Shown: positions 15,136 through 55,744 of the stretch, piece by piece
Layout of the letters: each line of letters begins with the position of its first letter
Position numbering within the stretch: the first letter of the stretch is position 1
From: a bacterium
Lineage (GTDB): Bacteria > Bdellovibrionota_C > UBA2361 > SZUA-149 > JAGRAN01
Direction of reading: 5' to 3'
Length of the DNA stretch: 64,000 bases
NCBI GenBank assembly: GCA_030431555.1
Contig: JAUIIP010000001.1
Location: 2,062-66,061 of the forward strand
Program-made: the position numbers and the translations under genes
The notes under the pieces: generated by a model
Databases searched by the model: none
What the model saw: the letters and a program-made list of their open reading frames with translations, nothing else
What the model was told of the DNA's origin: nothing

Positions 15136-15374
15136 GCATGGAGCCGAAGTACTTTAGGAAGCAGCTACTCCGTCCATTTTGGGGCACCGTTGCTGTCCTC
15201 CTTTTGCTAAATCTCCTGGTCTTTCTGGTCGAAAACCGACTCATCGGTCTCGAGAGTTGGCAGATTCCCTGTTTGCTCACATTAGCACTAGGACTGTTCT
15301 ATCTCAGGCTGTTCGGCGAAGTGTTTTGGGTAACTCTGCTAAAGAGCAATAAACATGAAAATCCCAAGCGCTAA
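15132..15374 (+). CDS. Small (80 aa) two-TM membrane protein overlapping the stop of the preceding gene (ATGA)
   Basis: ATGA overlap with the fused MFS/spermidine synthase gene; two hydrophobic helices; no homolog recognised. Confidence 0.35.
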   Translation: MSMEPKYFRKQLLRPFWGTVAVLLLLNLLVFLVENRLIGLESWQIPCLLTLALGLFYLRLFGEVFWVTLLKSNKHENPKR

Positions 15375-35466: not shown

Positions 35467-36495
35467 TCAAGTAGTTTGCGGGTTCAGATGCAGAAATAGA
35501 TCGTTTCTAACCCTGGGATTGCTTATTTTCCAGATGCATCCGTCAATAAAGTAGTGGTGGATATTAACTATAGCTGTAAGTAAAACAGCAATTATTCCAA
35601 GCTTACTGTCGAGGGACACAAGCATGTCTTCAACGCCGAAGAACACGATATAGCCGACTACGACCATTAGCCCATAGTATAACAACATTGGTTTTATGAT
35701 ATCGACGGCACCCCTTTCGCCGCTTAGGCGATTCATCTCAACTCGAAACGGGAAAATTAAATACTGCAGCGCATGAGACAACTGAACCCAAAACAAGGTA
35801 TTCGGGTGACGATTCAGTAAAAGGTACCAAAAGCAAATCGCAGTGTACGGAATAACTACACGCAGCGGCGGAAGGCTGCCGGTTCTCCTAGCGATTTTAA
35901 CAAATAGGGCAAAACCCAATAGCGCAGCAGCGACTGCTGCCAAATCGACAAACGGCTTAACATTTGGAAGCACTGCGGCTAAAGTCGGAAACCTATCGAT
36001 AATAGTGGTGCTGAACCAAACAAGCTGCCAACCAAGCAGGACTTTCAAAATTGCTCGAAATGCTCCGCGCTCACTCTCGGTAAACTTCAAACCGTCAAGA
36101 TAAGCGAACGAGGCCATCATTCCCCAAGTTTGTCCGGTGTAGTGCACCGCCAAATAATACCCCATCACCAAGAGAAAAATGTTGGCGTAATGTGCGTTAT
36201 CCGCAGGACCGAGCGCAAAATACAACGCAAACAAGCAGTACAGCGTAAGCAGCGCAGGCAAATAGAAAGCGGCCCATCTGTACTCTTTAACCATCTCCCT
36301 AGACCCATACAGCAGCCGATACGACGCAATAAAATGCGGGGCGTTAATCAGCGTTGTCAGGATGATGAAGTTTCCAAACAGCAGCGGACCTGTGCGAGAA
36401 GTATCGAGCAGGAGAAAACAGCCGATCACTACTATCGACAAGCCTCCGACACAAAGAACATCTACCGGCTTGGAAATTATCGACCTATCAGTCAT
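35467..36495 (-). CDS. Polytopic membrane protein with conserved His motifs ('INAPHFIASYRLL', 'VNIHHYFIDGCIW'); unknown family
   Basis: ~8 TM helices; weak similarity to the 61279-62223 product. Confidence 0.55.
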   Translation of the reverse strand: MTDRSIISKPVDVLCVGGLSIVVIGCFLLLDTSRTGPLLFGNFIILTTLINAPHFIASYRLLYGSREMVKEYRWAAFYLPALLTLYCLFALYFALGPADNAHYANIFLLVMGYYLAVHYTGQTWGMMASFAYLDGLKFTESERGAFRAILKVLLGWQLVWFSTTIIDRFPTLAAVLPNVKPFVDLAAVAAALLGFALFVKIARRTGSLPPLRVVIPYTAICFWYLLLNRHPNTLFWVQLSHALQYLIFPFRVEMNRLSGERGAVDIIKPMLLYYGLMVVVGYIVFFGVEDMLVSLDSKLGIIAVLLTAIVNIHHYFIDGCIWKISNPRVRNDLFLHLNPQTT

Positions 36496-36548: not shown

Positions 36549-37754
36549 TTGCCGGAATATGCTAAGAAACTTTTCATGAACGGACTCGGCGCACAGTTTA
36601 CGAATTCCACCGGCTCGGCCAAGGATGTGATTAAGCCCTTCACCAAGCTTGGCTTAACTGCCTACGGTGGCCCTGCGGCACATATTGCAATGATGGAAGA
36701 CGAGTTTGTTGAGAAGCGGCGATGGATCAGCCGCGAGCACTTTTTGGACCTGGTAGGTGCCACTAACTTAATTCCCGGTCCCAATTCTACAGAAGTTGCG
36801 ATGCATATCGGCCACGAACGAGCTGGGATATGGGGTATGGTCCTGGCAGGCGTGTGCTTCATTGTGCCCGCAGTTCTAAGCACACTTTTGCTCGCAGTGG
36901 CTTATGAAGCTTATGGTGAAGTCCCTCAGCTCGCTCCGCTATTCGACGGAATTAAACCCGCTGTTCTCGTAATAATTGCCGCCGCGGCGTACAGACTCGG
37001 CAAGAAAGCCTTGGCCGGCACTCGGCTTGCCATGATTGCTGCGCTGGTCGCATTAATGAATCTCTGCGGCATCAGCGAGGTTTATTCTTTACTAACCGGT
37101 GGGCTGGCAGGAGCGGTCTGGCTTAAGAGTTCGTCGCCCGGTGTCGGGATAATGGCTTTCGCGACCACTTTTTTCTCCACCAGGGCGGCTGCAGCAAGTG
37201 CCGTGTTCGCTGCCGCCGCCGCAAGCTCCGAAGCCTCAATAGTAAAACTGAGCCTGTTTTTCCTCAAAGTTGGAGCAGTCCTGTACGGCAGCGGCTACGT
37301 CCTAATTGCGTTTCTTGAAGGTGACCTTGTTAATCGATATGGATGGCTCAGCCAGCAGCAACTCCTCGATGCCGTCGCAATCGGGCAGTTCACGCCAGGG
37401 CCCGTCCTGTCGACCGCTGCCTTCATCGGTTATCTCATCGGAGGCTACATCGGCGCACTGAGTGCCGCCTTTGCGATCTTTCTCCCGTCCTTCTTTTTCG
37501 TGTTGATTCTTAATCCGCTGATCCCCCGGCTAAGAAAATCAACCTGGACTTCGTGCTTCCTCGACGCGGTTAACGCATCAGCTGTCGCGCTGATGTTCGT
37601 CGTAATATTTCGCTTAGGCGCAGTGTCGCTTGTCGCCTGGAAGCCTGCGGTTGTTTTTCTGGTTGTTGCAGCCCTGTATTTATTGCGCACGCCGAGCACA
37701 CCCCTGCTTATTGCACTCGGCGCGGCGATTGGTTACTTCCTGCACCTGATCTAA
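36549..37754 (+). CDS. chrA: Chromate ion transporter (CHR family), full-length two-domain type
   Basis: 'FTKLGLTAYGGPAAHIAMMEDEFVEKRRWISREHFLDLVGATNLIPGPNSTEVAMHIG' and the second-half repeat 'GDLVNRYGWLSQQQLLDAVAIGQFTPGPVLSTAAFIGY'. Confidence 0.8.
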   Translation: MPEYAKKLFMNGLGAQFTNSTGSAKDVIKPFTKLGLTAYGGPAAHIAMMEDEFVEKRRWISREHFLDLVGATNLIPGPNSTEVAMHIGHERAGIWGMVLAGVCFIVPAVLSTLLLAVAYEAYGEVPQLAPLFDGIKPAVLVIIAAAAYRLGKKALAGTRLAMIAALVALMNLCGISEVYSLLTGGLAGAVWLKSSSPGVGIMAFATTFFSTRAAAASAVFAAAAASSEASIVKLSLFFLKVGAVLYGSGYVLIAFLEGDLVNRYGWLSQQQLLDAVAIGQFTPGPVLSTAAFIGYLIGGYIGALSAAFAIFLPSFFFVLILNPLIPRLRKSTWTSCFLDAVNASAVALMFVVIFRLGAVSLVAWKPAVVFLVVAALYLLRTPSTPLLIALGAAIGYFLHLI

Positions 37755-37984
37755 ATTGACGAAGGCGGGTCGCTAAGCTCAACCGCTTCTATCCATTCGA
37801 TTCTGGATAGCTTGCTTATCATCGAATCCTCAACGGTCTCGTCGATAATTCCATACACCTCGAATTCCGCTCCATCCTCAACGCATTCCAAACCGATACT
37901 TTCCAAGCATTTCCTATCAGAGTCGAGCAAACGTTCACGTAAAATTGACAAATGCAGATACCGATAACCGTTGTAAGTGATCAT
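37751..37984 (-). CDS. Small acidic hypothetical protein (77 aa)
   Basis: ORF only; convergent 4-nt overlap with the chrA end. Confidence 0.3.
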   Translation of the reverse strand: MITYNGYRYLHLSILRERLLDSDRKCLESIGLECVEDGAEFEVYGIIDETVEDSMISKLSRIEWIEAVELSDPPSSI

Positions 37985-38337
37985 AACGTTCTCCCCTAGT
38001 GCCTCGCAGTGATGAAAATAATTCTAGGCGCGCGATCGAATCTCATTCCAGTTCGTTTGCGAACTTTCTGTAGAACTGTTGTTCGAAAGTTAAAAAAAGT
38101 TGAAAGGCGAAAGTTTCGTTATTCGCGCATCGTGGCTTGACAACCCTGCTCTGTTCCGAACTCCACCGCTGACTTGAATAGCGTTCGAAGATATGTCTCT
38201 CCAAATGTGTCTTTTCTGCGCGATTGCTGTATAACCTTAGTACAGCTAGCCCTGAGCGCAGGCATCTAAGAGTCCCTTTTCACTGCGTTTTCACTCGGGC
38301 CAGGACTTGCACAAAGCTTGCATTACTAGTGTTTACT

Positions 38338-38541
38338 ATGGACACGAGAACTAAATTGCCGCGCTATTTCAGACCGCCCGTTTGCTGCGAGTGCGGTAAG
38401 GAACTGCCGCAGCGAAGAGCCAGTTACGAAAGTGCCCAGCGTCTCTACTGCGAGACATGCGAGCAGCTCGGTCGCACAAAAACTGACTGGAAGCCGATTC
38501 GCTACGGCAAGGTTTCCGGCATGTTCGTGGTAAAAGATTAA
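38338..38541 (+). CDS. Small zinc-ribbon protein (CxxC...CxxC), 67 aa
   Basis: 'CCECGKELP...YCETCEQL'; ATG at 38338; convergent with the downstream paralog gene. Confidence 0.35.
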   Translation: MDTRTKLPRYFRPPVCCECGKELPQRRASYESAQRLYCETCEQLGRTKTDWKPIRYGKVSGMFVVKD

Positions 38542-38550
38542 CGCGTCTCA

Positions 38551-40353
38551 TTAGCAGCTTGTTCCCGTACAGATATCCGTAAAATCACCGAAGCGCGCAG
38601 TACCAGCTATTGCTTCGGACATATTCTGCGAAGCCACATTCGCCGCAACAGCCGCCGCCATATCAGCCTGCTTTCTGCGGTCTCGGGCAATCGTGGCTTC
38701 GGTGATCGCCTGCACTGCGGCGCGGTCGGATGCTGTGTCCGCCTTTGCCATATCGATCGTGCGATCGACGCGCTCGATCAAAGTCCAGAACATTCTACGG
38801 TCGTTCGGTGTCATTCTGAGGTTCAGCACGTCATGATTTGCCAAAAGCACTTTGGTTCGCTTGTGCAACTTTTCAAACGCAGACGCGGCAGAGGCGTCAG
38901 CAAAGTTCTGCAGCCACCTCGACAATCGACCTTCAGGGTCCTCGCTGCACTCAAGTGGTTCTTCTGTTCCGTCTTGAAGCATAAGCGCTGACTTTTTTAT
39001 CGCGGGAGTTACCAGCGTTCCGGCCGAAGCCTCAATCCATGCTCGTTTCTCATGGTCTGTGAACGTGTCCCAGGGAGCGTCTTTCATCCTAAGTACGTGG
39101 ACCATCCCCTCCTTAATTCCAAAACTCGTGGCCATTCCGGTAAAGGGACAGGTGATCGACTGATAGTTCGGCTTATGTGGGGGGCTGCAGGCCTGCCCGT
39201 TGCTTTTTTGCCCGGCGACCGTAGGCACACAATTAGTTGTACACATGCAGCCGTCTCGCAGGGCGCGTATTTTGTCTGAAACAGTAAACTTGGGCCAGAT
39301 AAAGTGATAGCCGTTCTTGTCGACTACTATGTCGCCGTACATCTCTTTAATAAAAGTAGCGAACTTGATTATCTCTTGCGACCCGTTGGTCGTTTGGATT
39401 GCTTTTACACCGTGGAAATATCGGTCTACTAGACTCCATTTGGTGGGTGGCTGACTCCCGTTAATCCCCTCGACTCCGGACGAAATGGTCGCATGCGCAG
39501 CTTGCTGAACGCAGCAGACACACCAGCCGTACCGCAGATTTTCGTCAGTCGGCAAAGTGCCGCACTCTGTTGCGCAGTTACTCGGATCCAAATCGCTGAA
39601 GCGGCCTTGAGTCATTACAGGGCCGCTATTAGCATTCGGTGTATTCAAGCAGGCCTGCATTTTCTCATCGGCGTCTACATACAACTGACTTCTATGCGGA
39701 TTAGCGATCCGTGAGTTGGTCCAGCTGATTTGCTTAAGCAACAGACTGTGAGTTTCTTGATTAACCTGTGCCTCAGTGGTCGCCAGACCGGCTGCCACCG
39801 TTTTATCCAAATATGAAAGCGTAAGCGTTGCTACACCTCGAATCGTCTTAAATAGATCAAGATAGTCGTCGCGCTTCTTTTCATTCTCGGCGACTCCCAA
39901 CTTAATTTTTTGCAGAGGCTGGTAGACAGCCATTGTAGCGCGAGTGATTTCATCATCCGTGCTGACGGATTGAACCTGGCTTCTGGGATCCGGTTGAGGA
40001 ATTTCACCTGCCGCTACCAGCGCCTGCAAGTTCGGCACGTTGTCGCCAATCCACTGACCGTAGTTCTCTTCTCTAAGTTTCGGGTACTTTCGGGATTTAT
40101 AATCGAAGAGGATCGGAGTTGCTTTGTAACCGTGATTGAGTGTGGAGTCGCCGCCATAAGCATCGCCGAGCGCGTTTGCTCCAAAGCTCTGCACCCAGTC
40201 TTCCATCATGATTTGGGCGCCTTTGTCGGTGCCTTCAATATTGCTTTGCGCTGCGGAGGCAACCGGCAAACACAAAAGCACCAATAGGGTGGAATACCTG
40301 CGAGAGAAATAGAGTAATCTGAGCGCGGCGCGCGAAATTCGGATCCCTAACAT
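38551..40353 (-). CDS. Large secreted Cys-rich protein, paralog A of a tandem pair (unknown family)
   Basis: Signal peptide 'LLVLLCLPVASAAQS'; 600 aa; ~45% identity to paralog B over most of its length and ~90% identity over the C-terminal ~150 aa. Confidence 0.7.
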   Translation of the reverse strand: MLGIRISRAALRLLYFSRRYSTLLVLLCLPVASAAQSNIEGTDKGAQIMMEDWVQSFGANALGDAYGGDSTLNHGYKATPILFDYKSRKYPKLREENYGQWIGDNVPNLQALVAAGEIPQPDPRSQVQSVSTDDEITRATMAVYQPLQKIKLGVAENEKKRDDYLDLFKTIRGVATLTLSYLDKTVAAGLATTEAQVNQETHSLLLKQISWTNSRIANPHRSQLYVDADEKMQACLNTPNANSGPVMTQGRFSDLDPSNCATECGTLPTDENLRYGWCVCCVQQAAHATISSGVEGINGSQPPTKWSLVDRYFHGVKAIQTTNGSQEIIKFATFIKEMYGDIVVDKNGYHFIWPKFTVSDKIRALRDGCMCTTNCVPTVAGQKSNGQACSPPHKPNYQSITCPFTGMATSFGIKEGMVHVLRMKDAPWDTFTDHEKRAWIEASAGTLVTPAIKKSALMLQDGTEEPLECSEDPEGRLSRWLQNFADASAASAFEKLHKRTKVLLANHDVLNLRMTPNDRRMFWTLIERVDRTIDMAKADTASDRAAVQAITEATIARDRRKQADMAAAVAANVASQNMSEAIAGTARFGDFTDICTGTSC

Positions 40354-40504
40354 CGTTAACAGCTCTCCTTAAGCTATCAACGACGACGCCGCGTTGCTAA
40401 AGTTCAGTATTACCCCGTGTATCTCACGTTATGCGGGGAAGACCACGGCATGTTGCCTTTATTTGCGTAGCTGCTTTACTAAGCCTCCGGCAATATGCGG
40501 TTAT

Positions 40505-42370
40505 TCAGCAGGTTGTACCAGTGCAAATGTCCGTAAAATCGCCAAAGCGAGCCGTTCCGGCAATTGCCTCAGACATGTTCTGCGAGGCAACGTTTGCCGC
40601 GACTGCTGCGGCCATGTCGGCTTGTTTTCGGCGGTCGCGCGAGATTGTAGCATCGGTAATTGCCTGAACTGCTGCGCGATCAGACGCTGTATCGGCTTTG
40701 GCCATGTCGATAAAGCGGTCGACTCGCTCAATCATCGTCCAAAACATCCGCCTGTCGTTAGGCGTCATCCGCAGGTTAAGCACATCGTGATTAGCAAGCA
40801 GAGCCTTGGTCCGGTAGTGCAGCTTTTCAAACGCCGACACTGCAGAAGCGTCGGAGAAATTTAGCAGCCAGCGCGCCAGCTTGCCCTCAGGATCCTCGTT
40901 GCACTCCAGCGGCTCCTCAGTTCCGTCCTGAAGCATAAGCGCGGCTTTTTTAACCGCCGGCGTTACCATCGTTCCCATCGAAGCCTCCACCCACGAACGC
41001 TTTTCGTCATCAGTCATTGTATCCCAAGGCGCATCCTTCATTCGCAGCACGTGAATCATTGCCCGCTTGACGCCAAAGCTGGATGTCATTCCAGTAAAGG
41101 GGCACACAAGTGTGCTGGTAGTTGGCAGCGGCGGACTACAGGGTTGTCCGGCACTCGGCTGCCCGGGAACAACCGAGCAGCCTGTAGGACACAAGCAGCC
41201 GTCTCGGATCGCGCGAATCTTGTCTGAGATAGAAAACTCAGGCCATCTAAAGTGATATCCGTTCTTGTCGACTACGACATCGCCATACATCTCTTTAATG
41301 AACTTGGCGAAATCAAGGATTTGATCGACTCCGGGCGACGCTTGGACTGCTTTTACTCCGTGGAAATAGCGGTCAACCAAGCTCCACTGTTTGGGATGAT
41401 TCAGACCAGTAATTCCGTCGACGGCGGGCGTAATTGACGCATGACTCCCCTGCTGCACACAGCACACACACCAACCATAGCGCAGCGAAGCATCAGGCGG
41501 CATCACGCCGCACTCAGCGAGGCAATTGCTGGGGTCAAAATCACTAAAGCGGTCAAGCAGCATCTGCGGGCCGGGCTGCGGCCCCGAAGCCCCAAGCGTG
41601 TTCAGGCAGACTTGAACCTTCTCATCGGCGTCTACGTAAATCTGGCTGCGCTGCGGATTGGCGATACGCGAATTGGTCCAACTAATTTGCTTAAGCAGCA
41701 AATTCTGCGTTTCCTGATTTACCTGTGATTCAGTAGTCGCCAGCCCGGCAGCAATAGTTTTGTCTAGATAACTCAAAGTCAGGTTAGCCACCCCTCGCAG
41801 CGTTCCAAAGAGGTTTAGATAGTTGTCGCGCTTCTTGGCATTCTCAGCGACGCCTTGCTTTATTCTATGCAGCGGTTGGTAAACGGCCATCGTAGATCGC
41901 GTAATTTCATCATCCGTACTGAGTGACTGAACTAGACTATTTGGATCAGGCAGCGGATACTCGCCGGAACTCACCAAGTTGTTCAAATCAGGAACATTAT
42001 CAATTGCGGTAGAGCGCTCACGCAGTTTTGGATATTTGCGTCGCGCAGTTATGCCGCTCGCATTCCAGTTCTCGTCAGTGTAGTTGTCAAAAAGTATCGG
42101 GGTCCTTTTGTAACCGTGGTTCAGCGTCGAGTCCCCGCTGTACGCATCAGCTATCGCGTTAGCATCGTAAGCATCAACCCAGCCGTCCATCATCACCGCG
42201 GCACCCTCGTCCGTTCCCTCGACCTGGGCGAAGGCTGCTGACGGAGCGAGGCCAAATGCAAACAGGAACAACAGCCGTTTGACTCTGGTACTGACGAAAG
42301 CCAGGCTTCGGAAATAGTTGTGAGTATTGTCGAACCGAGTGCCGGAACGGCGGTTTCTTGTGACACGCAT
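40505..42370 (-). CDS. Large secreted Cys-rich protein, paralog B of the tandem pair (unknown family)
   Basis: Signal peptide 'LLFLFAFGLAPSAAFAQ'; 621 aa; shares the 'EGTD.GA..MMD.WV', 'STLNHGYK.TPILFD', 'KQISWTNSRIANP' and 'YGWCVCCVQQ' blocks with paralog A. Confidence 0.7.
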   Translation of the reverse strand: MRVTRNRRSGTRFDNTHNYFRSLAFVSTRVKRLLFLFAFGLAPSAAFAQVEGTDEGAAVMMDGWVDAYDANAIADAYSGDSTLNHGYKRTPILFDNYTDENWNASGITARRKYPKLRERSTAIDNVPDLNNLVSSGEYPLPDPNSLVQSLSTDDEITRSTMAVYQPLHRIKQGVAENAKKRDNYLNLFGTLRGVANLTLSYLDKTIAAGLATTESQVNQETQNLLLKQISWTNSRIANPQRSQIYVDADEKVQVCLNTLGASGPQPGPQMLLDRFSDFDPSNCLAECGVMPPDASLRYGWCVCCVQQGSHASITPAVDGITGLNHPKQWSLVDRYFHGVKAVQASPGVDQILDFAKFIKEMYGDVVVDKNGYHFRWPEFSISDKIRAIRDGCLCPTGCSVVPGQPSAGQPCSPPLPTTSTLVCPFTGMTSSFGVKRAMIHVLRMKDAPWDTMTDDEKRSWVEASMGTMVTPAVKKAALMLQDGTEEPLECNEDPEGKLARWLLNFSDASAVSAFEKLHYRTKALLANHDVLNLRMTPNDRRMFWTMIERVDRFIDMAKADTASDRAAVQAITDATISRDRRKQADMAAAVAANVASQNMSEAIAGTARFGDFTDICTGTTC

Positions 42371-42803
42371 TGCTGACAGCTCCTTTAGCTATCAACAACA
42401 ACGTAACGATTTCTCCCTCAGGAAGTTCCCCTTCCTACCTAAAGTTATGAGCACTGATTCGGCTAGCGTTGCCTTAATTTAAGACGCAGGCGATAAGTGA
42501 CTGTAATCACATCCCAATCGCTGACGTCCCAGCAGTCACCCTCCCATACTTGATTAAACTGCTAGGAGATTATATCTTTATCTCTAGCTTGCAGACTTCG
42601 GGAGTCTGGAAGCACGTCGTAGTCGGTTGTTCCTTACAACCGAATAAACTGCTGCCGCGTCGGGCTGCAGGCCGCCTCCGATCATCGAGGCTGTGTATTC
42701 CCAATCAGAGTTAGAAACAGCGTCGTCCTTTGCTGCTGCTCTGCGCTGCAGTTAAGGGCGACCCAGCACCAAGGTTCACACTCCGGAACCTGCTCTGCCA
42801 CGC

Positions 42804-42842
42804 AGGCGGAAGCGTTGAGGTGCAGCCTCAACGCTTCCGCCT
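42804..42842. repeat. Long perfect hairpin (15-17-bp stem GCGGAAGCGTTGAGG / CCTCAACGCTTCCGC, 5-nt loop) in a 550-bp intergenic region, followed by the palindrome AACAGTACTGTT and a T6 run
   Basis: Seen directly in the sequence. Confidence 0.5.
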
Positions 42843-42917
42843 CACCGAGGCTGAGCAACAGTACTGTTTTTTCACAGCCGGCTTGCCCGGCAACACATTC
42901 TTTCCGGAGATTTTTCT

Positions 42918-44288
42918 ATGACTAAGTCTTACTCACCAGTGGACTACTACCCGAGCTCGCAAGAGCAAGTAATCGGCAACATTGAGCTGATCGGTCAAAC
43001 ACCAGAGGCAGGCATCACATTCAGTCCGGAGCAAAGCTTCGGCTGCATGATGTATGTTCTCGGAGATCCGGTTACCGGTCGGCACAATAAGCGTCACGTG
43101 CTCGACATGGCTGGACATGTGGCAAGTATGCTTCTTGGCTACAACCACCCGGCTTTGATGAGCGAAGACGTATCGAACGAACTTGCACTTGCAGCAAGGT
43201 GCCGCTTTGCCAGCGGCGACTTCGGCACACCCTTTCGCGGCATGCTTGGCCCGGTCTTTCAGCGAACCGTAATGCGCAACTATTATACTCACAGCATCTT
43301 CTTCACAGAGGGTGCTCGTGCGGTGGAGTGCGCATGCAAAATCGGCTTTTACTGCCGTCAAGATGACGTTTCGCTGAACTTGGAGAAAGAAGGTCGCTGG
43401 CTTACGCCGCAGACAGGCTTTCACGGCCGCAGTGTCTTGGCACTGTCGCTGACAAAGTCATACGACCTTCGCAAGCACCACAACATGCCTGTGATGGATT
43501 GTGTTGAACGAGTAGCTTGCCCAACTATTGGCGAACGGGAGAATCCTGAAGATCTTCGTGCTCGAGAAGACGAAGCGCTTTACGACATCGACCAGAAGAT
43601 GAAAGCTCTTGGCGAGCGATTCATTGGTTTTGTCATGGAGCCAATGCTCGGCGAGGGTGGTTATCAGTTCTACTCGGCGCGCTTTCTTCAGGAACTCGAG
43701 TCACTGATTCGCAAGTATCGCGGAATATTCATCATTGATGAAATCCAAACTGCTTTTGCTTGCGGACGAGTTTTTCTCCACGAGGCGTACGATGTCACTC
43801 CCGATCTGGTTGTTTTCGGCAAGAAGTTCGGAATGAGTGGAGTGCTCTCAACAGAGCAGTTTACTCAAAACTATCCGTGGCATCCGCTGGCTAAGCCCGA
43901 GTCGCGAGTAAGCTCGACTTGGTCGGGCGATCCGGTCGCGGACGTCAGGCTGCGTGCAATGCTCGAATTCCTTGAGACGAGCAAAGTGATGCAGCTCAGT
44001 ATCGGACTCGGTTCCTTATTGCGTGACGGCCTTGAGCGAATTCGCAATTCGGAGGTCGGACGCAGGATGCTCAGCCACGTTAGAGGCGACGGTTTGCTCG
44101 CCGCAGTTGACGTGTCTGACGCGCAAACGCGCAGCAAGCTGATAAACGCCTGCCTCGAGAATGACTTGCTCGTGGTTGGCTGCGGCTTTCGCTCTATTCG
44201 CTTTTGTCCGCCAATTACAATCACGCAAAAGGAGATTGCACTTTGCCTTGAGCGTTTTGAGCGGGCAGTAAGGTCACTAGCCGCGTAG
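42918..44288 (+). CDS. Class-III (PLP-dependent) aminotransferase family protein, L-lysine 6-transaminase-like
   Basis: 'IFIIDEIQTAFACGRVF' (DEIQTG-type motif) and 'VVFGKKFGMSG' (PLP-binding Lys context); ~450 aa. Confidence 0.75.
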   Translation: MTKSYSPVDYYPSSQEQVIGNIELIGQTPEAGITFSPEQSFGCMMYVLGDPVTGRHNKRHVLDMAGHVASMLLGYNHPALMSEDVSNELALAARCRFASGDFGTPFRGMLGPVFQRTVMRNYYTHSIFFTEGARAVECACKIGFYCRQDDVSLNLEKEGRWLTPQTGFHGRSVLALSLTKSYDLRKHHNMPVMDCVERVACPTIGERENPEDLRAREDEALYDIDQKMKALGERFIGFVMEPMLGEGGYQFYSARFLQELESLIRKYRGIFIIDEIQTAFACGRVFLHEAYDVTPDLVVFGKKFGMSGVLSTEQFTQNYPWHPLAKPESRVSSTWSGDPVADVRLRAMLEFLETSKVMQLSIGLGSLLRDGLERIRNSEVGRRMLSHVRGDGLLAAVDVSDAQTRSKLINACLENDLLVVGCGFRSIRFCPPITITQKEIALCLERFERAVRSLAA

Positions 44289-46880: not shown

Positions 46881-48839
46881 GTGGCTGCCGAATCAGAAAC
46901 AAAATCAGACAAGAAGATGTGCCCCGACTGCGGGGCGCGATTTGAGTCCGATAAGACTACCTGTCCGCACGATGGGAGCTTCCTGGTCGACGATCAGCCG
47001 AATGAAGACCCTCTGATCGGCAAGACGATCGACAACAAGTATCACATACTTTCCAAGCTCGGGGGCGGCGGCTTCGGTGCCGTTTACCGTGCCGAGCACA
47101 AAATGATGAACCGCACAGTGGCGCTCAAAGTGCTGCATCATCACCTGCTGGATGGTGACGCCAGAAATGAATTTCTGGTCAGGTTCCAGAGAGAGGCGCG
47201 AACTTCAAGCAAGATTGAACACCCCAATGCTATTACCATCCATGACTTTGGAATCTTTGAGAACAGCCCATACCTGGTGATGCAGTATGTAGAGGGACGG
47301 ACATTAAAACAGGTCATTAACGATCACGGCGCCCTTTCGATCGACAGAGTCGTAGCTATTGTTGAGCAGGTAAGCGGAGCGATTGGTGAGGCGCACGAAC
47401 TTGGGATCGTTCATAGAGATTTAAAACCGGATAACATAATCCTGAGCAGCGCCAAGGACGGCACCGAGCGGGCGATCGTGCTGGACTTCGGGATTGCTAA
47501 GATTATGACTGAGGACAGCAGTTCCCAGTCGATGCAGCTTACTCAAACCGGCACTATCACAGGAACTCCACAGTATCTTTCGCCGGAGCAGGCCCGGCAG
47601 TCAGAGATCGACGGCAGGTCGGACATTTACTCATTGGGCATCATCACCTACGAAATGCTGACCGGGCAGGTCCCATTTACGGCGGACTCCGTAGTTGCCG
47701 TACTGATGAAGCATATGAGTGAGGCGCCTCCGCGTTTCGAAGACCTAAGCAAGAAAGTCAATATCAAGTCTGAAATCGAGGAGGTCGTTAGAGCCGCCCT
47801 CGAGAAGGAGCCCGACAAAAGGCCCGCAACTGTCAGTGAGTTTGCGAGCGCGCTCGCAAATGCCGCCGGCATCAATCCAGGCACGCCCGTCAGCTTCGGA
47901 TCGTTAATCAAAAAGAGCGATACTCCTGCGACTTCGACGCCTTCATTAAAGATCGAAGTCAAAGTGCCGCCCAAGAAGGAGCTGTTCGGACTGATCGCAA
48001 CGGCTGCTGTTGTTTTCCTTGTCGGTTCTTTCTTTGTTATATCGGACGACGAACCCGGCACGCCGGAAGCTAAGGAGCATCAGATAAATACGTCTGAGCA
48101 AAAACCTGAAGGCGCTCCCGACTGGGTCGAACTGGATAATTCCGAAAATCCATCTGACCCGGCGCAGGCATCGGCCGATAATCCTTGGCAGAGCCTGCTC
48201 TCAGACGCTGAAACCGAGAAAGCAAATAAGAATTGGGACAAAGCGGCGGAGCTCTATACAAAAGCGATTGAGATGGGAGCGGACGATGCGGAAATTTATT
48301 TTAAGCAAGGAGACGTTCTGATAAACGCAGGCAAACTTCAGCAAGCTGCTGAGAGCTTTCGCGCCGCCGTAAGCCGCGATCCGCTCCACGAAAACTCTCA
48401 TGCAAGTCTGGGTTATGTTTACGGTGAACTCGGCAATCTGGACTCTTCTCTCAACGCGTATAAGAATGCTTTAGAGATTTCGCCCGAAAAGCCGCTGCTG
48501 CATAACAATGTCGGTTTTACGCTTTTCAAAATGAAAAAATACGAAGAGGCGAAAAAAGCCTACGGTCAGTGTTTGAAAATCGATAAAACTTATAGTCGCT
48601 GTATTTACAATCTGGCTGATATTTTCAAACAAGAAAAAAGCTACGACAAGGTAGCGACTCTTTATCAGCTTGGCTTAAAAAGCGAGCCAGACAACGCCCT
48701 GGTGCATTACGCACTCGGTGAAACCTACGAAAAACTAGGGCAAAAGCAGGACGCAATTAAATCCTACCAAGAGGCCCTAAGGCTAGACCCCAATTTACGG
48801 AACGCCCAGAAACGATTATCTGTGCTGGGAGCGCGGTAA
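46881..48839 (+). CDS. Eukaryotic-like Ser/Thr protein kinase with an N-terminal zinc ribbon, one TM helix and C-terminal TPR repeats
   Basis: 'CPDCGARF...CPHDG'; kinase 'LGGGGFGAVYRAEH...VALKVL', 'HRDLKPDNIIL', 'DFGIAK', 'GTPQYLSPEQ'; TM 'LFGLIATAAVVFLVGSFFVI'; TPR-like C-terminal repeats. Confidence 0.85.
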   Translation: MAAESETKSDKKMCPDCGARFESDKTTCPHDGSFLVDDQPNEDPLIGKTIDNKYHILSKLGGGGFGAVYRAEHKMMNRTVALKVLHHHLLDGDARNEFLVRFQREARTSSKIEHPNAITIHDFGIFENSPYLVMQYVEGRTLKQVINDHGALSIDRVVAIVEQVSGAIGEAHELGIVHRDLKPDNIILSSAKDGTERAIVLDFGIAKIMTEDSSSQSMQLTQTGTITGTPQYLSPEQARQSEIDGRSDIYSLGIITYEMLTGQVPFTADSVVAVLMKHMSEAPPRFEDLSKKVNIKSEIEEVVRAALEKEPDKRPATVSEFASALANAAGINPGTPVSFGSLIKKSDTPATSTPSLKIEVKVPPKKELFGLIATAAVVFLVGSFFVISDDEPGTPEAKEHQINTSEQKPEGAPDWVELDNSENPSDPAQASADNPWQSLLSDAETEKANKNWDKAAELYTKAIEMGADDAEIYFKQGDVLINAGKLQQAAESFRAAVSRDPLHENSHASLGYVYGELGNLDSSLNAYKNALEISPEKPLLHNNVGFTLFKMKKYEEAKKAYGQCLKIDKTYSRCIYNLADIFKQEKSYDKVATLYQLGLKSEPDNALVHYALGETYEKLGQKQDAIKSYQEALRLDPNLRNAQKRLSVLGAR

Positions 48840-50130: not shown

Positions 50131-51006
50131 TTAGCCTTCGCTCTCCAAGAGCGCTTTTATCTCGCCGAAGCGCTGCGCACGCTTCTCATCAACACTCGGG
50201 TAAACTAGACCAAGGCTGGTTAAAGACTTCACGATCGTATCTGCTACAACCATTCGCATATACGGTTTGTCGTCGGCAGGAATGACATACCAAGGTGCCC
50301 ACGGCCTCGACGTCGCATCGACGGCCTGCTTGTAAGCTTCGATATACTTATCCCAAAGCCGCCGCTCCCGAACATCAGCCTCAGCAAATTTCCAGTTCTT
50401 CTCAGGCTCCCTTAGTCTCTTAAGAAAGCGTCGCCGCTGTTCATCACGCGAAACGTTAAGCCAAAACTTAATTATAACGGTCCCATTGCGAGCCAGGTGC
50501 AGCTCGTGATCGCGAATAGACTGGTAGCGCTGCTCCCACAGCTCATCGGCCTCGGCTGTACTGGGCAGGCGCTGCGCTTGCAGTATCTCCGGATGGACCT
50601 TAACTACGAGCACCTCTTCGTAGTAGCTGCGATTAAAAATACCGATTCTTCCGCGCTCAGGAAGGCACTTGACCGTGCGCCATAGGAAGTCATGATCGAG
50701 CTCTTCACTCGAAGGCTGCTTGAAGCTGTACACCTGACATCCAGCCGGATTGATTCCAGTCATCACAGCTCGAATTGTGCTGTCTTTACCCGCGGCATCC
50801 ATCGCTTGAAACACCAGCAGCACCGCTCGACGGTCGCTGGCGTAGAGCTTTCGCTGCAGCTCGCGAAGCTCGTCAATCGAGGACTGCAGGTGCTTTTTAC
50901 AGGCACTCTTTCCCGGCGAGTTCTTGGGCGGCTCTGTCTCTGAGGACAGGGCGGCAAGGCTATTCCTGCCTCCGGCCAAAAACGGGGTGTCGATTGCTTC
51001 AAACAA
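50131..51006 (-). CDS. ppk2: Polyphosphate kinase 2 (PPK2 family, single-domain)
   Basis: Walker A 'FQAMDAAGKDSTIR', 'IGIFNRSYYEEVLVV' and lid region; ~290 aa, typical of PPK2. Confidence 0.85.
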   Translation of the reverse strand: MFEAIDTPFLAGGRNSLAALSSETEPPKNSPGKSACKKHLQSSIDELRELQRKLYASDRRAVLLVFQAMDAAGKDSTIRAVMTGINPAGCQVYSFKQPSSEELDHDFLWRTVKCLPERGRIGIFNRSYYEEVLVVKVHPEILQAQRLPSTAEADELWEQRYQSIRDHELHLARNGTVIIKFWLNVSRDEQRRRFLKRLREPEKNWKFAEADVRERRLWDKYIEAYKQAVDATSRPWAPWYVIPADDKPYMRMVVADTIVKSLTSLGLVYPSVDEKRAQRFGEIKALLESEG

Positions 51007-51199
51007 TAGTGGTCTCCAGAGTGAGATTTAACAGTCTAGCTAATCTTTAAAGCGCCAACAGAAATCTGGCAAATCATTCGCCGATTAGCGCGGATGTAGA
51101 CAGTATGAGGCTAAGCTTCGAACTTCTAACAACAAATTGCTTGCGAGAAGCGGCGTAGCAGACCACTATTAACACTAGTAAAAGTTTAAGGAACTTCAC

Positions 51200-52024
51200 T
51201 TGAGCAACCTTGCGCAGGAATTATGGCGGGACGAACTAAGCGGCCAGCGTCGCTCAATCCCCGCCACAGATATCGGTGAACATCCGGGTGAGGATGCACC
51301 GGCTAAGGTTTCTATAGAGCGCGAGCTTCGCTTTTTTATGCCGCTTTCGATGCTTGGCGACTATTTGAATGTAAAGAATCTCGAGAAAATCACGATAGAG
51401 CAGCATTATTTCGCCCCGGATAATTTTCCGCTGATTAGTGTATTCGCCGGAGAACTCGCAGGCGTAGGGCTGCTTCCGAGCGATCTGCGAATAACTCAGG
51501 CCCGCATCCGCACAATCACAAAGGCACATGGCGAAGGCGAAACTTGCCTGGAGATCAAAGGACGTCAACCCCATCACGATTCGTTCGAGCGCTTGGAGTT
51601 TTCAGTTCCAATCACAACTGACTCATTTTTCAGACTTCGAGAGCTGGCGGGTGCCGGCAGCCTGACAAAATCGCGCTACCGGGCTCCGGGTGTAATATCC
51701 CTAAACAACCGTGACCAGGCGCGGGTAATTGCCGAGATCGACGTATACGACAGAATCGGAAAAAACCAGCCGCTCAGCAGTTGCTCGGAAAAGCACGACT
51801 TTGCGACGATAGACGTTGAAATCCCAGACAAGTGTCTGCTCGGACCCTTGGCCGACGGAAAGCACAATTTAGATTTCCTGTTTGATGCCATAAACTTAAG
51901 TGACAGCGAGAAACGAATACAGAAATCGCTTAGCTCGCAACGCATGGCGCGCAAAGGTCTGGATAAGCGGGCTCAAGATGTCCTACTCGAACTCCATGAG
52001 AAATATCGCGCCGCGCGTGAATAA
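51200..52024 (+). CDS. CYTH-like (triphosphate tunnel metalloenzyme) domain protein; TTG start, tentative
   Basis: 'VSIERELRFFMP...IEQHYF' resembles the CYTH N-terminal E-x-E-x-K-F strand and 'ieQ.Y'; located between ppk2 and ppk1. Confidence 0.45.
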   Translation: MSNLAQELWRDELSGQRRSIPATDIGEHPGEDAPAKVSIERELRFFMPLSMLGDYLNVKNLEKITIEQHYFAPDNFPLISVFAGELAGVGLLPSDLRITQARIRTITKAHGEGETCLEIKGRQPHHDSFERLEFSVPITTDSFFRLRELAGAGSLTKSRYRAPGVISLNNRDQARVIAEIDVYDRIGKNQPLSSCSEKHDFATIDVEIPDKCLLGPLADGKHNLDFLFDAINLSDSEKRIQKSLSSQRMARKGLDKRAQDVLLELHEKYRAARE

Positions 52025-52178
52025 CCACCTTAATACCAAGCAATTCATACTTTTCTAACATTCGCATCCAGGACAATAGCCGCGAATTTAGTATACTAAA
52101 CCACTATTTAATGTCCGACGCGGGAAGTGACGACTCCTCGTGGAAGACACTCATTAGAAATCGCCTTTTAAGGAGACA

Positions 52179-54308
52179 ATGGAAACCCCCCGCAGCAGTG
52201 ACTCGGCAAACATAATGTCCGACCTGATCAATCTCGAAGACAGGTACATAAACCGAGAACTTAGCTGGCTTCAGTTCAATTCCAGAGTCCTAGAGCAGGC
52301 CTCAGACCAAGACGTTCCGCTGCTCGAGCGCTTGAACTTTCTGCGCATTTTCGGAAGCAATTTAGACGAATTTTTCATGAAGCGTGTCGGCGGGCTAAAA
52401 CGCCATATCGCCGCCGGCGTAACTGCGCCGAGTGTTGACGGAATGACCCCCGAGCGGCAGCTAAAAGCGATTCGACATTTCCTGATCCCACAAATGGTCG
52501 AATGGGAGCGGGTCTTCTTCGAAGAATTAAAACCCCAACTCGGTGAAAGTCGCATCGAGTTGATAACCGACTGGTCTGAACTCAGTGCAGAAGAGATGCA
52601 GTTTGCTGAAAGGCATTTTAGGGAGCAAATTTTTCCCGTCTTGACTCCGCTTGCAGTCGACCCGGGACATCCCTTCCCGTTTATTTCTAACTTATCAACG
52701 TCACTCGGCGTCTCTTTGCGGCATCCCGAAATTGAAGAACCGCTGTTCGCTAGAGTCAAAATAAGCGATCTCGATCCTCAATGGCTACGACTGGACACGG
52801 GTGCGCCCGGAAACCACTACCGGTTCCTGCTGGTTCGCGAGCTAATTCAGCAATTCTTGCACGAAGTATTTCCAAATATGGAAATACGCGCCGTAATGCC
52901 TTTCCGCGTTACCCGAAATGCAGATCTTGAGATCGATGAAGAAGAAGCAGAGGACCTGCTCGAGCTGATTCGTGAAGAACTGCGCCAGCGCCGAGTCGCG
53001 AATGTTGTTCGCCTTGAACACGGTGCCAATCCGGATGCTTGGATACTTAATTTTTTAATTGAAGAGCTCTCGCTCACCCCGGACGATGTTTACGAACACA
53101 CGGGGGAACTCTACAGCCTGGACCTGCCGGAATTTCTTGGCACATCGCTTCCGGAACTCAAATACCAGACTTGGCATCCGGCCACACCTGCTTCTCTCCC
53201 GCAGGACTCAAACATGTTCAGCCTGATTCGCAACAGGGACGTGCTCGTACATCATCCGTTTGAGAGCTTTGCCCTCAGCGTTGAGCGATTTGTCAGGGAA
53301 GCGGTGGAAGACGATCGAGTCGTTTCAATAAAAATGACAGTTTACCGAGTAGGCGATGAATCACCGCTTATCCCGCTGCTGATTGAAGCAGCGCAGCGAG
53401 GGAAAGACGTCGTTTGCCTTGTGGAATTGAAAGCCAGATTCGAAGAACAGCGCAATATTACTTGGGCCCAAAAGCTCGAGAATTCCGGCGTGCACGTCGT
53501 CTACGGCATTCCCGGTCTCAAGATTCATGCGAAAACTCTACTAATAGTGCGTAAGGAACTCGAAGGTATTCGCTGTTACGCTCACTTAGCCACCGGAAAC
53601 TATCACGCCAAAACAGCGAACCTTTACACGGATGTTGGACTATTTACTTCTAAAAGTGAGTATACCTCCGAACTCGTGCATTTCTTCAATTACCTGACCG
53701 GCCGCTCACTAAAGGACGACTATCAAACATTGCTTGTTGCGCCGCTCAATATGAACGAGCGATTCATATCGATGATTCGGCGCGAAATCGAACACAAGAA
53801 GGCAGGACGACCGGCCAGAATCGTTGCAAAAATGAACAGCCTGGAGGACCGCTTTATTATTCAGTCGCTCTACGAAGCTTCCCAGGCCGGTGTGCAAATC
53901 GACTTACTCGTTCGCGGGATCTGCTGCCTGCGCCCCGGAGTAAAGGGTTTAAGCGAGAACATCCGTGTTGTATCAGTAGTCGGCCGGTTGCTCGAGCATT
54001 CGCGGATCTACTTCTTCCAAAACGGCGCTAAAGATCCCTTAGAAGGAGACTTCTACATAGGTTCCGCGGATTGGATGGGGCGCAATTTGCATAGGCGAGT
54101 AGAGGTGATAGCGCCAGTTTCCGAAAAGCTCGGACACAAGATGTGTTGGGAGATAATGGAAGTTCTCTTAAATGACAACAGGCAGGCTTGGGACATGCAG
54201 TCTGACGGCACTTACGTGCGGAGACGATCTAGCGATACCGAAGCGGTCGGCCCACATGAAACTCTGATGCGGCTCGCCAAAGCTCAGGCGAACGGCCATA
54301 TGGAATAA
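52179..54308 (+). CDS. ppk: Polyphosphate kinase 1
   Basis: 'INRELSWLQFNSRVLEQA', 'LERLNFLRIFGSNLDEFFMKRV' and both PLD-like HKD regions ('HAKTLLIV', 'IGSADWMGRNLHRRVEV'); 709 aa. Confidence 0.9.
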   Translation: METPRSSDSANIMSDLINLEDRYINRELSWLQFNSRVLEQASDQDVPLLERLNFLRIFGSNLDEFFMKRVGGLKRHIAAGVTAPSVDGMTPERQLKAIRHFLIPQMVEWERVFFEELKPQLGESRIELITDWSELSAEEMQFAERHFREQIFPVLTPLAVDPGHPFPFISNLSTSLGVSLRHPEIEEPLFARVKISDLDPQWLRLDTGAPGNHYRFLLVRELIQQFLHEVFPNMEIRAVMPFRVTRNADLEIDEEEAEDLLELIREELRQRRVANVVRLEHGANPDAWILNFLIEELSLTPDDVYEHTGELYSLDLPEFLGTSLPELKYQTWHPATPASLPQDSNMFSLIRNRDVLVHHPFESFALSVERFVREAVEDDRVVSIKMTVYRVGDESPLIPLLIEAAQRGKDVVCLVELKARFEEQRNITWAQKLENSGVHVVYGIPGLKIHAKTLLIVRKELEGIRCYAHLATGNYHAKTANLYTDVGLFTSKSEYTSELVHFFNYLTGRSLKDDYQTLLVAPLNMNERFISMIRREIEHKKAGRPARIVAKMNSLEDRFIIQSLYEASQAGVQIDLLVRGICCLRPGVKGLSENIRVVSVVGRLLEHSRIYFFQNGAKDPLEGDFYIGSADWMGRNLHRRVEVIAPVSEKLGHKMCWEIMEVLLNDNRQAWDMQSDGTYVRRRSSDTEAVGPHETLMRLAKAQANGHME

Positions 54309-54319
54309 CGGATTGCGAA

Positions 54320-54859
54320 GTGAAAATTATTATTCTGCGACACGCGATTGCTGAAGACCGCGATGCCTGGGCGGACAAGAGCGAGGACGACAGCTTGCGC
54401 CCGCTCACCGAACGCGGCATATCGCGCTTGCATCAAGCCTGCTTAGGGCTCAAGACCGTGGTCGATCGAGTCGACGCAATCGTCAGCAGCTCCCTAACAC
54501 GGGCGCAGCAAACTGCACAGATTTTATTTGAGTACTACCCGGACGCAGAGCTCGGGGAGGACCCGGATTTGGAACCGGGTGGCGACTTGGATTCCCTCGT
54601 CGACCGACTTGCCGATTCGAGCGATAGTGCCGTCATCGTACTAATCGGGCACGAACCCGATCTGTCGACGCTGCTCGGCTTACTAATCGCCGGTGCGGAA
54701 CGCTCAATCGCTAAACTTAAAAAAGCCTCGGCAGTATGTGTTGATTTCTCTGTAGAAAATGGAGATTTTTATGCACGCTTGCTTTGGCTGCTCCCCCCCG
54801 CTGTCCTGCGCTCATTAGGCCGAGAGCGTGAGGGCGTCGTGCAAAATGCCGTCGACTAG
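54320..54859 (+). CDS. sixA: Phosphohistidine phosphatase SixA-like (histidine phosphatase superfamily)
   Basis: 'IIILRHAIAE' (RHG-type motif) and 'IVLIGHEPDLS'; GTG start 12 nt after the ppk1 stop. Confidence 0.7.
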   Translation: MKIIILRHAIAEDRDAWADKSEDDSLRPLTERGISRLHQACLGLKTVVDRVDAIVSSSLTRAQQTAQILFEYYPDAELGEDPDLEPGGDLDSLVDRLADSSDSAVIVLIGHEPDLSTLLGLLIAGAERSIAKLKKASAVCVDFSVENGDFYARLLWLLPPAVLRSLGREREGVVQNAVD

Positions 54860-55744
54860 TGACTTGGAGGTCGGCGTGATTTCCTCAGCACCGAAATAAG
54901 CTGCAACCTCATCCAGGATTAAAGCAGCTGCTAGAATAAGGTCAACGCGCCGCGGCTCGAGTTCCGGAATCATAGCCAACTCTGATTTATCCATCACTTC
55001 GATTCGTTTGATAAACGAGCCGAGATCGCGCCTGTCGAATGGACCATTTTCGCCCGCTGCATGCGTACAAACCTTGCCAAGCGCTCGAATTGAGCCGCTG
55101 GAGCCTATTAATTTTTGTGCGTGATTGAATGAAAAATTCTTCGAAAGCTCGTCAAGCTTGCTGCGCAAAGCGCGGCGAAGCTGCAGCTGTGCCTCTTCTC
55201 GCGGCGGAGCAGACTTTAGATAGTTCTGCTGAGAACGAGCTGCGCCAAAACGCAGACTTGTGGAAAACTCTATATCGGCACCGTGGCAGAGGCTTAGCTC
55301 AGTTGAACCCCCACCGATATCAAGCAGTACCAGCGGCTCACCGGACCGCTCAAACACGCCGGCCGTCACACCAACAGCAATAAGACGCGCTTCCTCTTCT
55401 TCTGAAATAACTTCTATCTCAATTCCGGTTTCGCGCTGCACTTCTGCTACGAACTGCGCTGAATCATCGGCCTCTCGCAAAGCGCTTGTACCGACAGCTC
55501 GCACAAGTTCTGGTGAAAATTGTTCAAGCAGCACCTTGAAATACTTAAACGCAGCAATGCCGCGCTGTCTCGCCTCCTGTGTCAAACAGTTGTCATCAAA
55601 CAGACCGTCACCAAGACGGATCATAATTTTTTCTTTGCAGCGGGGCACTATTTTGCCGCTTCGACCAATGTCGAATACGTAAAAACGAACAGAGTTCGTT
55701 CCGCAGTCAATAATCGCTATGTTGTCCGGACTTTCTACGCTCAC
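54815..55744 (-). CDS. ppx: Exopolyphosphatase / guanosine pentaphosphate phosphohydrolase (Ppx/GppA family, N-terminal ASKHA domains only, ~310 aa)
   Basis: 'IAIIDCGTNSVRFYVFDI' and 'VLLDIGGGSTELSL' actin-like ATPase motifs. Confidence 0.8.
   Translation of the reverse strand: MSVESPDNIAIIDCGTNSVRFYVFDIGRSGKIVPRCKEKIMIRLGDGLFDDNCLTQEARQRGIAAFKYFKVLLEQFSPELVRAVGTSALREADDSAQFVAEVQRETGIEIEVISEEEEARLIAVGVTAGVFERSGEPLVLLDIGGGSTELSLCHGADIEFSTSLRFGAARSQQNYLKSAPPREEAQLQLRRALRSKLDELSKNFSFNHAQKLIGSSGSIRALGKVCTHAAGENGPFDRRDLGSFIKRIEVMDKSELAMIPELEPRRVDLILAAALILDEVAAYFGAEEITPTSKSLVDGILHDALTLSA

Follow-up and report, generated by a model that had tools for sequence, protein, structure and literature searches.

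What are two neighbouring genes for large, secreted, cysteine-rich proteins doing in a genome where neither can be placed in a known family, and why are their C-terminal ends so alike? The question is raised by a stretch of 64,000 nucleotides (hereafter the window) from a bacterium of the Bdellovibrionota_C (GenBank assembly GCA_030431555.1, contig JAUIIP010000001.1, positions 2,062 to 66,061 of the forward strand), in which gene A (38551-40353) and gene B (40505-42370) follow each other on the minus strand. An earlier note, made from the letters of the sequence, had taken them for a recently duplicated or gene-converted pair. We find that the pair is old and that most of its relatives elsewhere are embedded in an operon for membrane proteins. 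The explanation that we favor, and to which we give about an even chance, is that A and B stem from an ancient duplication and are additional, separately regulated versions of a cysteine-rich periplasmic subunit, serving as alternatives within a cell-envelope module that has not been described before and that, where its members have a taxon name, is limited to uncultured Bdellovibrionales-type bacteria.

Architecture of the Two Proteins

Gene A encodes 600 amino acids (identical to protein P0001) and gene B 621 (identical to P0003), and their full-length alignment gives 72-75% amino acid identity. Strand, extent, and paralogy of both open reading frames agree with the earlier note, and the blocks that it quoted (EGTD.GA.MMD.WV, STLNHGYK.TPILFD, KQISWTNSRIANP, YGWCVCCVQQ, and GDFTDICTGT.C) are all found in the alignment. 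Both proteins start with a Sec signal peptide ending in an AXA motif, with predicted cleavage (at the slash) after A34 in A (ASA/A, in ...PVASA/AQ) and after A48 in B (AFA/Q, in ...SAAFA/QVEGTD). Beyond the signal peptide, neither A nor B has a further hydrophobic segment.

The layout is the same in both: a conserved helical core, a cysteine cluster, and a C-terminal helical hairpin, followed in B by a tail ending in ...FGDFTDICTGTTC. The helical core of A (39646-39966, minus strand, residues ~130-236) is the most conserved part of the family, with the invariant or near-invariant alignment columns STDDEI...RD.YLDLF.T.RGVA.LTLSYLDKTVAAGLATT...LLKQISWTNSR.ANP...DEK..AC. The cysteine cluster (39511-39576, minus strand) comprises C260, C264, C278, C280, and C281 in the motif NC..EC...RYGWCVCC, at column frequencies of 0.91-1.0 over 74 members. 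The hairpin of A (38596-38928, minus strand, residues ~476-586) corresponds by alignment to residues ~497-607 of B (40550-40882, minus strand); the two share 94% of their amino acids but 75% of their nucleotides.

An AlphaFold2 model of A built on the 74-sequence alignment reached a predicted local distance difference test (pLDDT) score of 76 and a predicted template modeling score of 0.73 (an earlier, poor model had a pLDDT of 58). In the better model, the N-terminal ~130 residues are ill-defined, after which comes a helical core at 147-236 that contains RD.YLDLF.T.RGVA.LTLSYLDKTVAAGLATT and LLKQISW. Next are the cysteine cluster, a small beta element, and a variable cysteine-rich loop (371-399) modeled at low confidence. 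The two hairpin helices, 476-510 and 516-586, have the highest pLDDT (86-97).

A contains 15 cysteines and B 14. Eight are family-wide, conserved in at least 91% of the 74 members (in A: C235, C260, C264, C278, C280, C281, C369, and C402). Another two, at positions 414 and 485 of A, vary together: both are cysteine in 59 members, neither is in 11 (including the window's clade), and only four are mixed, the pattern left by a disulfide whose two halves come and go jointly. The window's clade has lost both (K/A at 414/485) and has gained extra cysteines of its own (C371, C375, C389, C469, and a terminal C595/C600 pair), so that disulfides have been rewired within the family.

An Old Duplication Under Purifying Selection

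The pair had first attracted attention because the last ~150 codons of A and B seemed almost identical as DNA. As protein, conservation does peak in the C-terminal ~150 residues (90% identity vs. 66-69% in the N-terminal and middle parts, rising to 94% over the last 101 residues). At the DNA level the near-identity disappears: nucleotide identity is 0.75, with 0.89, 0.95, and 0.41 at codon positions 1, 2, and 3, the longest identical run is 14 nucleotides, and third positions agree no better than in the rest of the gene (0.41 vs. 0.40). Other segments are just as similar, since the core has 74-75% nucleotide identity, one block of 128 nucleotides has 81%, and the longest exact match (17 nucleotides) lies in the core. 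An identity at the 3' end no higher than elsewhere in the genes is the outcome that the earlier note had named beforehand as speaking against its reading.

A second genome provides the time scale. In a scan of species-representative genomes, the metagenome-assembled genome (MAG) HKST-UBA19 was found to carry the family at two loci, one of which (L003) is a tandem pair whose order and orientation match those in the window, with the ortholog of B at 1248-3125 and that of A at 3288-5102. The flanks are alike in the window and in L003, running from an aminotransferase through B, A, a 342-residue membrane protein, and a Na/Ala symporter to PhyH. In a distance tree the sequences fall into three paralog lineages, each containing a single sequence from any one genome: an A-type lineage (83-86% amino acid identity between A and its HKST-UBA19 ortholog), a B-type lineage (76-80% for B and its ortholog), and a "cluster"-type lineage (84-85% between proteins P0002 and P0004). 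Identity between the three lineages is 69-76%. In the window's clade, the A/B pair occupies a chromosomal site of its own, distinct from that of the cluster copy. The duplication is thus old, having given rise to three ancient paralog lineages, each with its own ortholog.

Substitution estimates (Nei-Gojobori) agree with this. The proportion of synonymous differences (pS) is saturated everywhere (0.7-0.93; 0.86-0.92 in the C-terminal region), and dN amounts to 0.10-0.15 between orthologs and 0.18-0.21 between paralogs. Within the C-terminal 150 codons, the paralogs of one genome (90% amino acid and 75% nucleotide identity) are no closer to each other than orthologs from different species are (91-93% and 73-79%), and therefore there is no signal of concerted evolution. 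The proportion of nonsynonymous differences (pN) is 0.04-0.06 at the C-terminus vs. ~0.20-0.21 in the N-terminal and middle parts. The C-terminal similarity is the result of stronger purifying selection, not of gene conversion. Across all three lineages the C-terminal helical hairpin has hardly changed, and it is the N-terminal two-thirds that have diverged. Outside the C-terminus pN still falls far short of pS (~0.2 vs. ~0.9), so positive selection is not indicated; the divergent N-terminal parts, which the earlier note had proposed to test for an elevated dN/dS, do not show one. A-type orthologs, for example, share 87% of their amino acids across residues 36-150.

Taken together, the model of recent duplication or gene conversion within a fast-evolving family of surface or virulence genes is left with a tandem layout and a very high C-terminal protein identity in its favor. 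Opposed to it are the third-position identity and the short identical runs in the C-terminal 150 codons, the saturated pS and the lack of any excess similarity within a genome, the separate ortholog of each gene in another species' syntenic pair, and purifying selection throughout, in all three paralog lineages. We give it practically no credence. A caution of wider use follows: protein ends that are nearly identical without identical silent sites are no evidence of gene conversion.

An origin of the pair in a mobile element or genomic island was also considered and is rejected in view of normal GC content, the lack of tRNA genes, the housekeeping flanks, and synteny on both sides. Two of the flanking genes deserve a brief description. 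The polytopic membrane protein of 342 residues (35467-36495, minus strand) has no Pfam family and is 79% identical to its syntenic counterpart in L003. Between its gene and gene A, the window has an intact chromate transporter gene (36549-37754, plus strand), of which HKST-UBA19 retains a remnant of ~47 codons (L003, 6147-6287); the gene has decayed in that lineage.

A Rare Family Without Annotated Relatives

The family is rare. An index of 5.8 billion proteins yielded 18 matches, and a profile search among 1.84 billion representatives found 121 clusters at 50% identity, whose members are named "hypothetical protein" or "bacterium" alone. Across 185,579 species genomes there are nine loci, eight in genomes labeled as Bdellovibrionales or Deltaproteobacteria MAGs and one in an "uncultured bacterium." Where a taxon is named, the family is confined to Bdellovibrionales-type MAGs.

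Library scans with A, B, and up to 60 members (Pfam, NCBIfam, PADLOC, and PHROGs) returned no family, the sole match being DUF3731 at an E-value of 0.029, below the cut-off. Searching PDB sequences with profiles A1 and A2 gave chance-level matches only, and Foldseek comparisons of both models (pLDDT 58 and 76) with the PDB gave nothing at E <3. That A and B are tandem paralogs, secreted and rich in disulfides, and that no known family accommodates them, as the earlier note had it, is thus borne out by the Sec signals, the conserved cysteines, and the empty library scans. In a tblastn search of 72,556 plasmids, neither A (E ≤10) nor one of the TraG_N-like partners introduced below had a match. 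A literature search on TraG_N arrays and on type IV secretion systems (T4SSs) in Bdellovibrionota found nothing relevant. In short, the family is uncharacterized and lineage-restricted, and its genomic partnership, described below, is informative and previously undescribed.

The Canonical Locus and Its Partner Genes

The neighbors of the other family members are more telling. At every locus with readable flanks, the family gene neighbors a gene for a thioredoxin-like protein and at least one for a large TraG_N-like paralog, the exceptions being the tandem pairs. It usually lies directly between the two (the order is permuted in locus L008). The canonical operon encodes, in this order, a TPR protein, the thioredoxin-like protein, the family protein, and five distinct TraG_N-like polytopic membrane proteins.

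Two loci are complete (L002/L015 and L016), and both have five TraG_N-like paralogs. In L015 a TPR-like protein (~535 residues), a thioredoxin-like protein (~395 residues), and the family protein come first, followed by paralogs of 994, 1065, 759, 744, and 1153 residues (1503-15674); in L016 the paralogs (916-14954) measure 1120, 974, 922, 723, and 926 residues. The paralogs are orthologous by position (first to first through fifth to fifth) across genomes, including loci L005, L006, L010, and L001, even where the family gene is only ~30% identical. The array is therefore ancient and fixed in order, as would be the case if its genes coded for different subunits of a single complex, and the five tandem paralogs suggest a fixed five-subunit membrane complex. 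Five such fixed paralogs also recall the VirB6 assembly of R388, described as five-fold.

All five TraG_N-like proteins scanned match the same segment of TraG_N (PF07916, model positions ~300-460), four of them at E-values of 1e-5 to 1e-4 (22-25 bits, vs. a cut-off of 36.1) and the fifth, from L001, at 0.015. Precomputed PF07916 matches exist for six relatives, and one neighbor has an unmarked (strong) match. One protein also matches the NCBIfam model TraG PRK13735 in the same region, and hhalign aligned this region of a partner with F TraG (P=0.048). The thioredoxin-like partner from L002 reaches the cut-offs of Thioredoxin_8 (28.3 vs. 27) and Thioredoxin_2 (27.3 vs. 27) and stays below those of the TraF-specific models (PF13728, 17.3 vs. 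23; TIGR02740, 16 vs. 232). The CxxC motif of this partner (NCKFC) is kept in L002 (8730-9914), L010 (7782-8960), and L011 (514-1692) and lost (NSSWA, NSSHA, or SNVYS) in L001 (8719-9999), L013 (8725-9999), L007, and L009; the window's clade has NSSWA. The split parallels that in F-like systems between TrbB, catalytic and with CxxC, and TraF, non-catalytic and without it.

Within ~10-20 kb of the cluster in L002/L015 and L016, there is no gene for a VirB4/TraC ATPase, pilin, TraB/K/V, TraU/W/N, coupling protein, or relaxase. Upstream, the same housekeeping genes (transketolase, AhpC, and a LOG-like gene) recur even where the family genes are only 29% identical, which points to a vertically inherited, chromosomal locus. 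At the other end of the array, both complete loci have a convergent gene of ~545 codons and, beyond it, one or two genes for polysaccharide deacetylases (L015, 15671-19556, and L016, 14973-17719, both minus strand). The product of this convergent gene has a faint TPR match in L016 and no Pfam match on record in L015.

The thioredoxin-like neighbor invites another reading, namely that the family protein acts by itself in the periplasm, in redox chemistry or metal binding through its CxCC and CxxxC motifs, the TraG_N-like link being a mere matter of operon neighborhood. Eight invariant cysteines including the C-x-C-C motif, the adjoining thioredoxin-like gene, and the persistence of A and B where the membrane partners are absent would all fit. 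We nevertheless judge it very unlikely: Cys414 and Cys485 are gained and lost together, as in a structural disulfide and not a catalytic site, the thioredoxin-like partner is without CxxC in the window's clade, the family resembles no redox or metalloprotein family, and it co-occurs strictly with a five-gene membrane array across very divergent genomes.

Leader Hairpins of the Tandem Genes

In the cluster-type copies, a single base separates the start codon from the stop of the preceding thioredoxin-like gene (TAG-A-ATG), to which they are translationally coupled; they have no leader hairpin. The tandem copies do. The leader of A (40351-40385, minus strand) reads 5'-CGUCGUUGAUAGCU-UAAGGAG-AGCUGUUAACGAUG-3' and folds at -20.5 kcal/mol (shuffles, -11.5 +/- 2.5), and that of B (42368-42400, minus strand), with the same architecture, reads 5'-UGUUGUUGAUAGCU-AAAGG-AGCUGUCAGCAAUG-3' and folds at -20.9 kcal/mol (shuffles, -9.7 +/- 2.4). 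Their counterparts in L003 are located at 1216-1250 and 3256-3290. In this geometry, the Shine-Dalgarno sequence lies in the loop or in the upper part of a stem of 13-14 base pairs, and the AUG forms base pairs in the lower part. The hairpin energy of all four tandem genes is -18 to -21 kcal/mol, and shuffled sequences reach -8 to -12 (a z of about -3.5 to -4.6).

Orthologs share 90-94% of the ~35 nucleotides that end with the start codon, even though silent sites are saturated, and A-type and B-type leaders have a common core (GTTGATAGC-WWW-AGGAG-(AG)-CTGT..ATG). All four genes retain thirteen of the pairs; one pair is compensatory (C-G to U-A), and four have changed via wobble. The motif was located only at the two leaders in the window and at one other, probably chance, site. 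An Rfam scan of 37700-43000 found no family, and a search around the genes turned up no sites resembling sigma-70 promoters and no more terminator-like sites than chance would give. The hairpins suggest that the tandem copies have acquired conditional translational control of their own.

Conservation is also visible further upstream. The intergenic region of 550 nucleotides between B and the divergent aminotransferase gene (42371-42917) shares conserved blocks with L003 (696-1247) in spite of saturated silent sites, among them CTGC.GCCCGACGCGGC.GCAG, CAACCGACTACGACG, and TGCTGGGTCG. A leader of ~100 nucleotides is common to A-type and B-type genes, with the blocks AAGGCAAC, CATAAC, TAG, and GGGWAA. 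These blocks may be regulatory sites or part of a structured 5' untranslated region.

Separate and apparently conditional translation, together with a conserved C-terminus on a diverged remainder and the location of the extra copies away from the machine genes, could also be expected of secreted effectors or toxins. The invariant C-terminus would then be a recognition or export domain for the machine encoded by the cluster, and the N-terminal parts would be the active ones. This we hold to be quite improbable. The most conserved segment of the family as a whole is the internal core (residues 130-236) and not a variable "payload," and the N-terminal parts are themselves conserved between orthologs, as the A-type comparison above illustrates. 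In most lineages the family gene is a single copy fixed inside the operon, as for a structural subunit, and neither a toxin, enzyme, nor immunity-gene signature accompanies it, the neighbors being housekeeping genes.

A Model of Alternative Periplasmic Subunits

How, then, might A and B work as alternative subunits? Both would be exported by Sec and folded oxidatively, with some four or more disulfides. Their shared C-terminal hairpin, which we propose to be a partner-docking or oligomerization module, would attach them to the same partner that the cluster copy has (the TraG_N-like platform or else the thioredoxin-like chaperone), and the diverged N-terminal two-thirds would confer an alternative specificity or function. 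The leader hairpin would act as a conditional switch, with translation of A and B starting once it is melted or unmasked. The module itself may operate like the traF-traH-traG subassembly of F-type systems, in which a thioredoxin-fold chaperone, a cysteine-rich coiled-coil periplasmic protein, and a VirB6-like membrane protein come together. Since the locus contains no ATPase, pilin, or relaxase genes, the module is unlikely to be a machine for DNA transfer.

Critically speaking, several points weigh against this model. No partner gene occurs in the 64-kb window, where the neighbors of A and B are the aminotransferase and the chromate transporter. That the window's organism has a cluster copy at all we infer only from P0002, which stems from a sibling (SRR33155353) of gene A's sequencing run (SRR33155355) and is listed, like P0003, under NCBI. 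Docking through the C-terminal hairpin we likewise infer from conservation alone. The scanned partners score 22-25 bits with TraG_N, below the Pfam gathering score of 36.1, and neither the sequence comparisons, with TraH among them, nor the Foldseek searches of the PDB link the family to a characterized protein. Finally, the covariation in the hairpin, computed on four sequences, is not significant, as 93 of 500 shuffles reach the observed score.

A bolder version, which we put forward tentatively and consider rather doubtful, regards the family as the exchangeable periplasmic "cap" or adaptor of a new envelope nanomachine that uncultured Bdellovibrionales-type bacteria would assemble from T4SS-derived parts. 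Five VirB6/TraG_N-like paralogs would form its hetero-oligomeric platform, a TraF-like protein would be the chaperone, and the whole would have been repurposed from DNA transfer (e.g., for cell-cell contact or prey interaction), the window's clade having evolved three alternative caps, two of which (A and B) would be switched by an RNA hairpin over their start sites. If the favored reading is right, parts of a conjugation machine (TraF-like, TraG_N/VirB6-like, and a TraH-like cysteine-rich protein) have been kept as a stable chromosomal module without DNA-transfer genes, in a host lineage that is poorly known and possibly predatory. It would also bring a protein family that is new and lacks any solved or annotated relative, an instance of paralogous subunits, with five fixed membrane proteins and three alternative periplasmic ones, and a simple translational control element.

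Other Genes in the Window

The remainder of the window contains a few genes of separate interest. At 50131-55744 lies a polyphosphate metabolism cluster comprising PPK2, PPK1, a histidine phosphatase, and Ppx/GppA. The gene at 46881-48839 (plus strand) joins a Ser/Thr protein kinase to a long TPR array, and the one at 1342-2550 (plus strand) joins a response-regulator receiver to a cyclic nucleotide (cNMP)-binding domain and a Crp-type helix-turn-helix domain.

Comparison With Known Systems

Among the known systems, the P-type VirB5-VirB6 pair offers a first likeness, as there too the gene just before those for VirB6-like (TraG_N) polytopic proteins encodes a secreted protein made up largely of helices. 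VirB5, however, has ~220 residues and is not rich in cysteines; the Foldseek search of the PDB, which includes VirB5-type structures, gave no match, and other VirB genes are missing. The cysteine-rich mating-pair stabilization protein TraN of F-type systems (~600 residues) is similar in size and also has a signal peptide and many conserved cysteines. It differs in that the family has no TraN match in Pfam or NCBIfam and is modeled as mainly alpha-helical with a long hairpin, and in that TraN is not encoded beside traG in F.

The closest parallel is F-type TraH, a cysteine-rich signal-peptide protein with a C-terminal coiled coil that binds TraF and needs DsbA and TrbB (PMC7555446). In IncC plasmids, traHG is driven by PtraF, and TraH and TraG act as cognate pairs, so that the alternative subunits TraHS and TraGS of SGI1 can replace the resident IncC ones in the mating pore (PMC5389848). 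Could the family be a true, extremely divergent F-type TraH, the cluster a degenerate or domesticated remnant of an F-type mating-pair-formation (MPF_F) T4SS, and A and B spare TraH genes? The order of thioredoxin-like gene, family gene, and TraG_N-like gene matches trbB..traH-traG in F and traHG in IncC (PMC5389848), the signal peptide, conserved cysteines, and long C-terminal helices are as in TraH (PMC7555446), and the partners are weakly but really similar to TraG_N and TraF.

Sequence comparison, on the other hand, yields no such relationship. In the Pfam scan of 60 members, A and B among them, TraH (PF06122) had no match at E ≤1, nor did NCBIfam give one for A and B. Alignment of the family by hhalign with F TraH, and with a 98-sequence TraH alignment, gave probabilities of 0.1-0.4%. 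Searches for more diverse TraH relatives yielded close ones: a homolog search listed sequences at least 78% identical, a tblastn of plasmids was saturated by IncF, and a metagenome scan gave near-identical F TraH. The 72,556 plasmids, as mentioned, hold no match to A. The family proteins are also ~150-300 residues longer than TraH, other MPF_F genes are lacking near the cluster, and the 64-kb window has none of them either (ATPase, pilin, TraB/K/V, or TraU/W/N). All in all, we regard homology with TraH as unlikely.

As alternative subunits of an envelope module, A and B are best set beside the F-type system feature by feature. The differences are clear: family proteins have 600-1000 residues vs. 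458 for TraH, without detectable sequence similarity; five tandem TraG_N-like paralogs take the place of one TraG; the canonical locus is chromosomal, vertically inherited, and next to housekeeping genes; and it has no VirB4/TraC, pilin, TraB/K/V, coupling protein, or relaxase, while the window copies lie away from their partners. The likenesses are those of layout and role. Like TraH, the family protein has a signal peptide, is rich in cysteines with conserved disulfide-type pairs, and has long C-terminal helices (as modeled by AlphaFold2). The canonical gene (though not A or B) stands between a thioredoxin-like gene and a TraG_N-like gene, in an order matching that of F, the thioredoxin-like partner occurs with and without CxxC, as do TrbB and TraF, and the alternative subunits echo TraHS and TraGS of SGI1. 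We would thus describe the family not as a TraH but as TraH-like in role, within what appears to be a TraF/TraH/TraG_N-like module.

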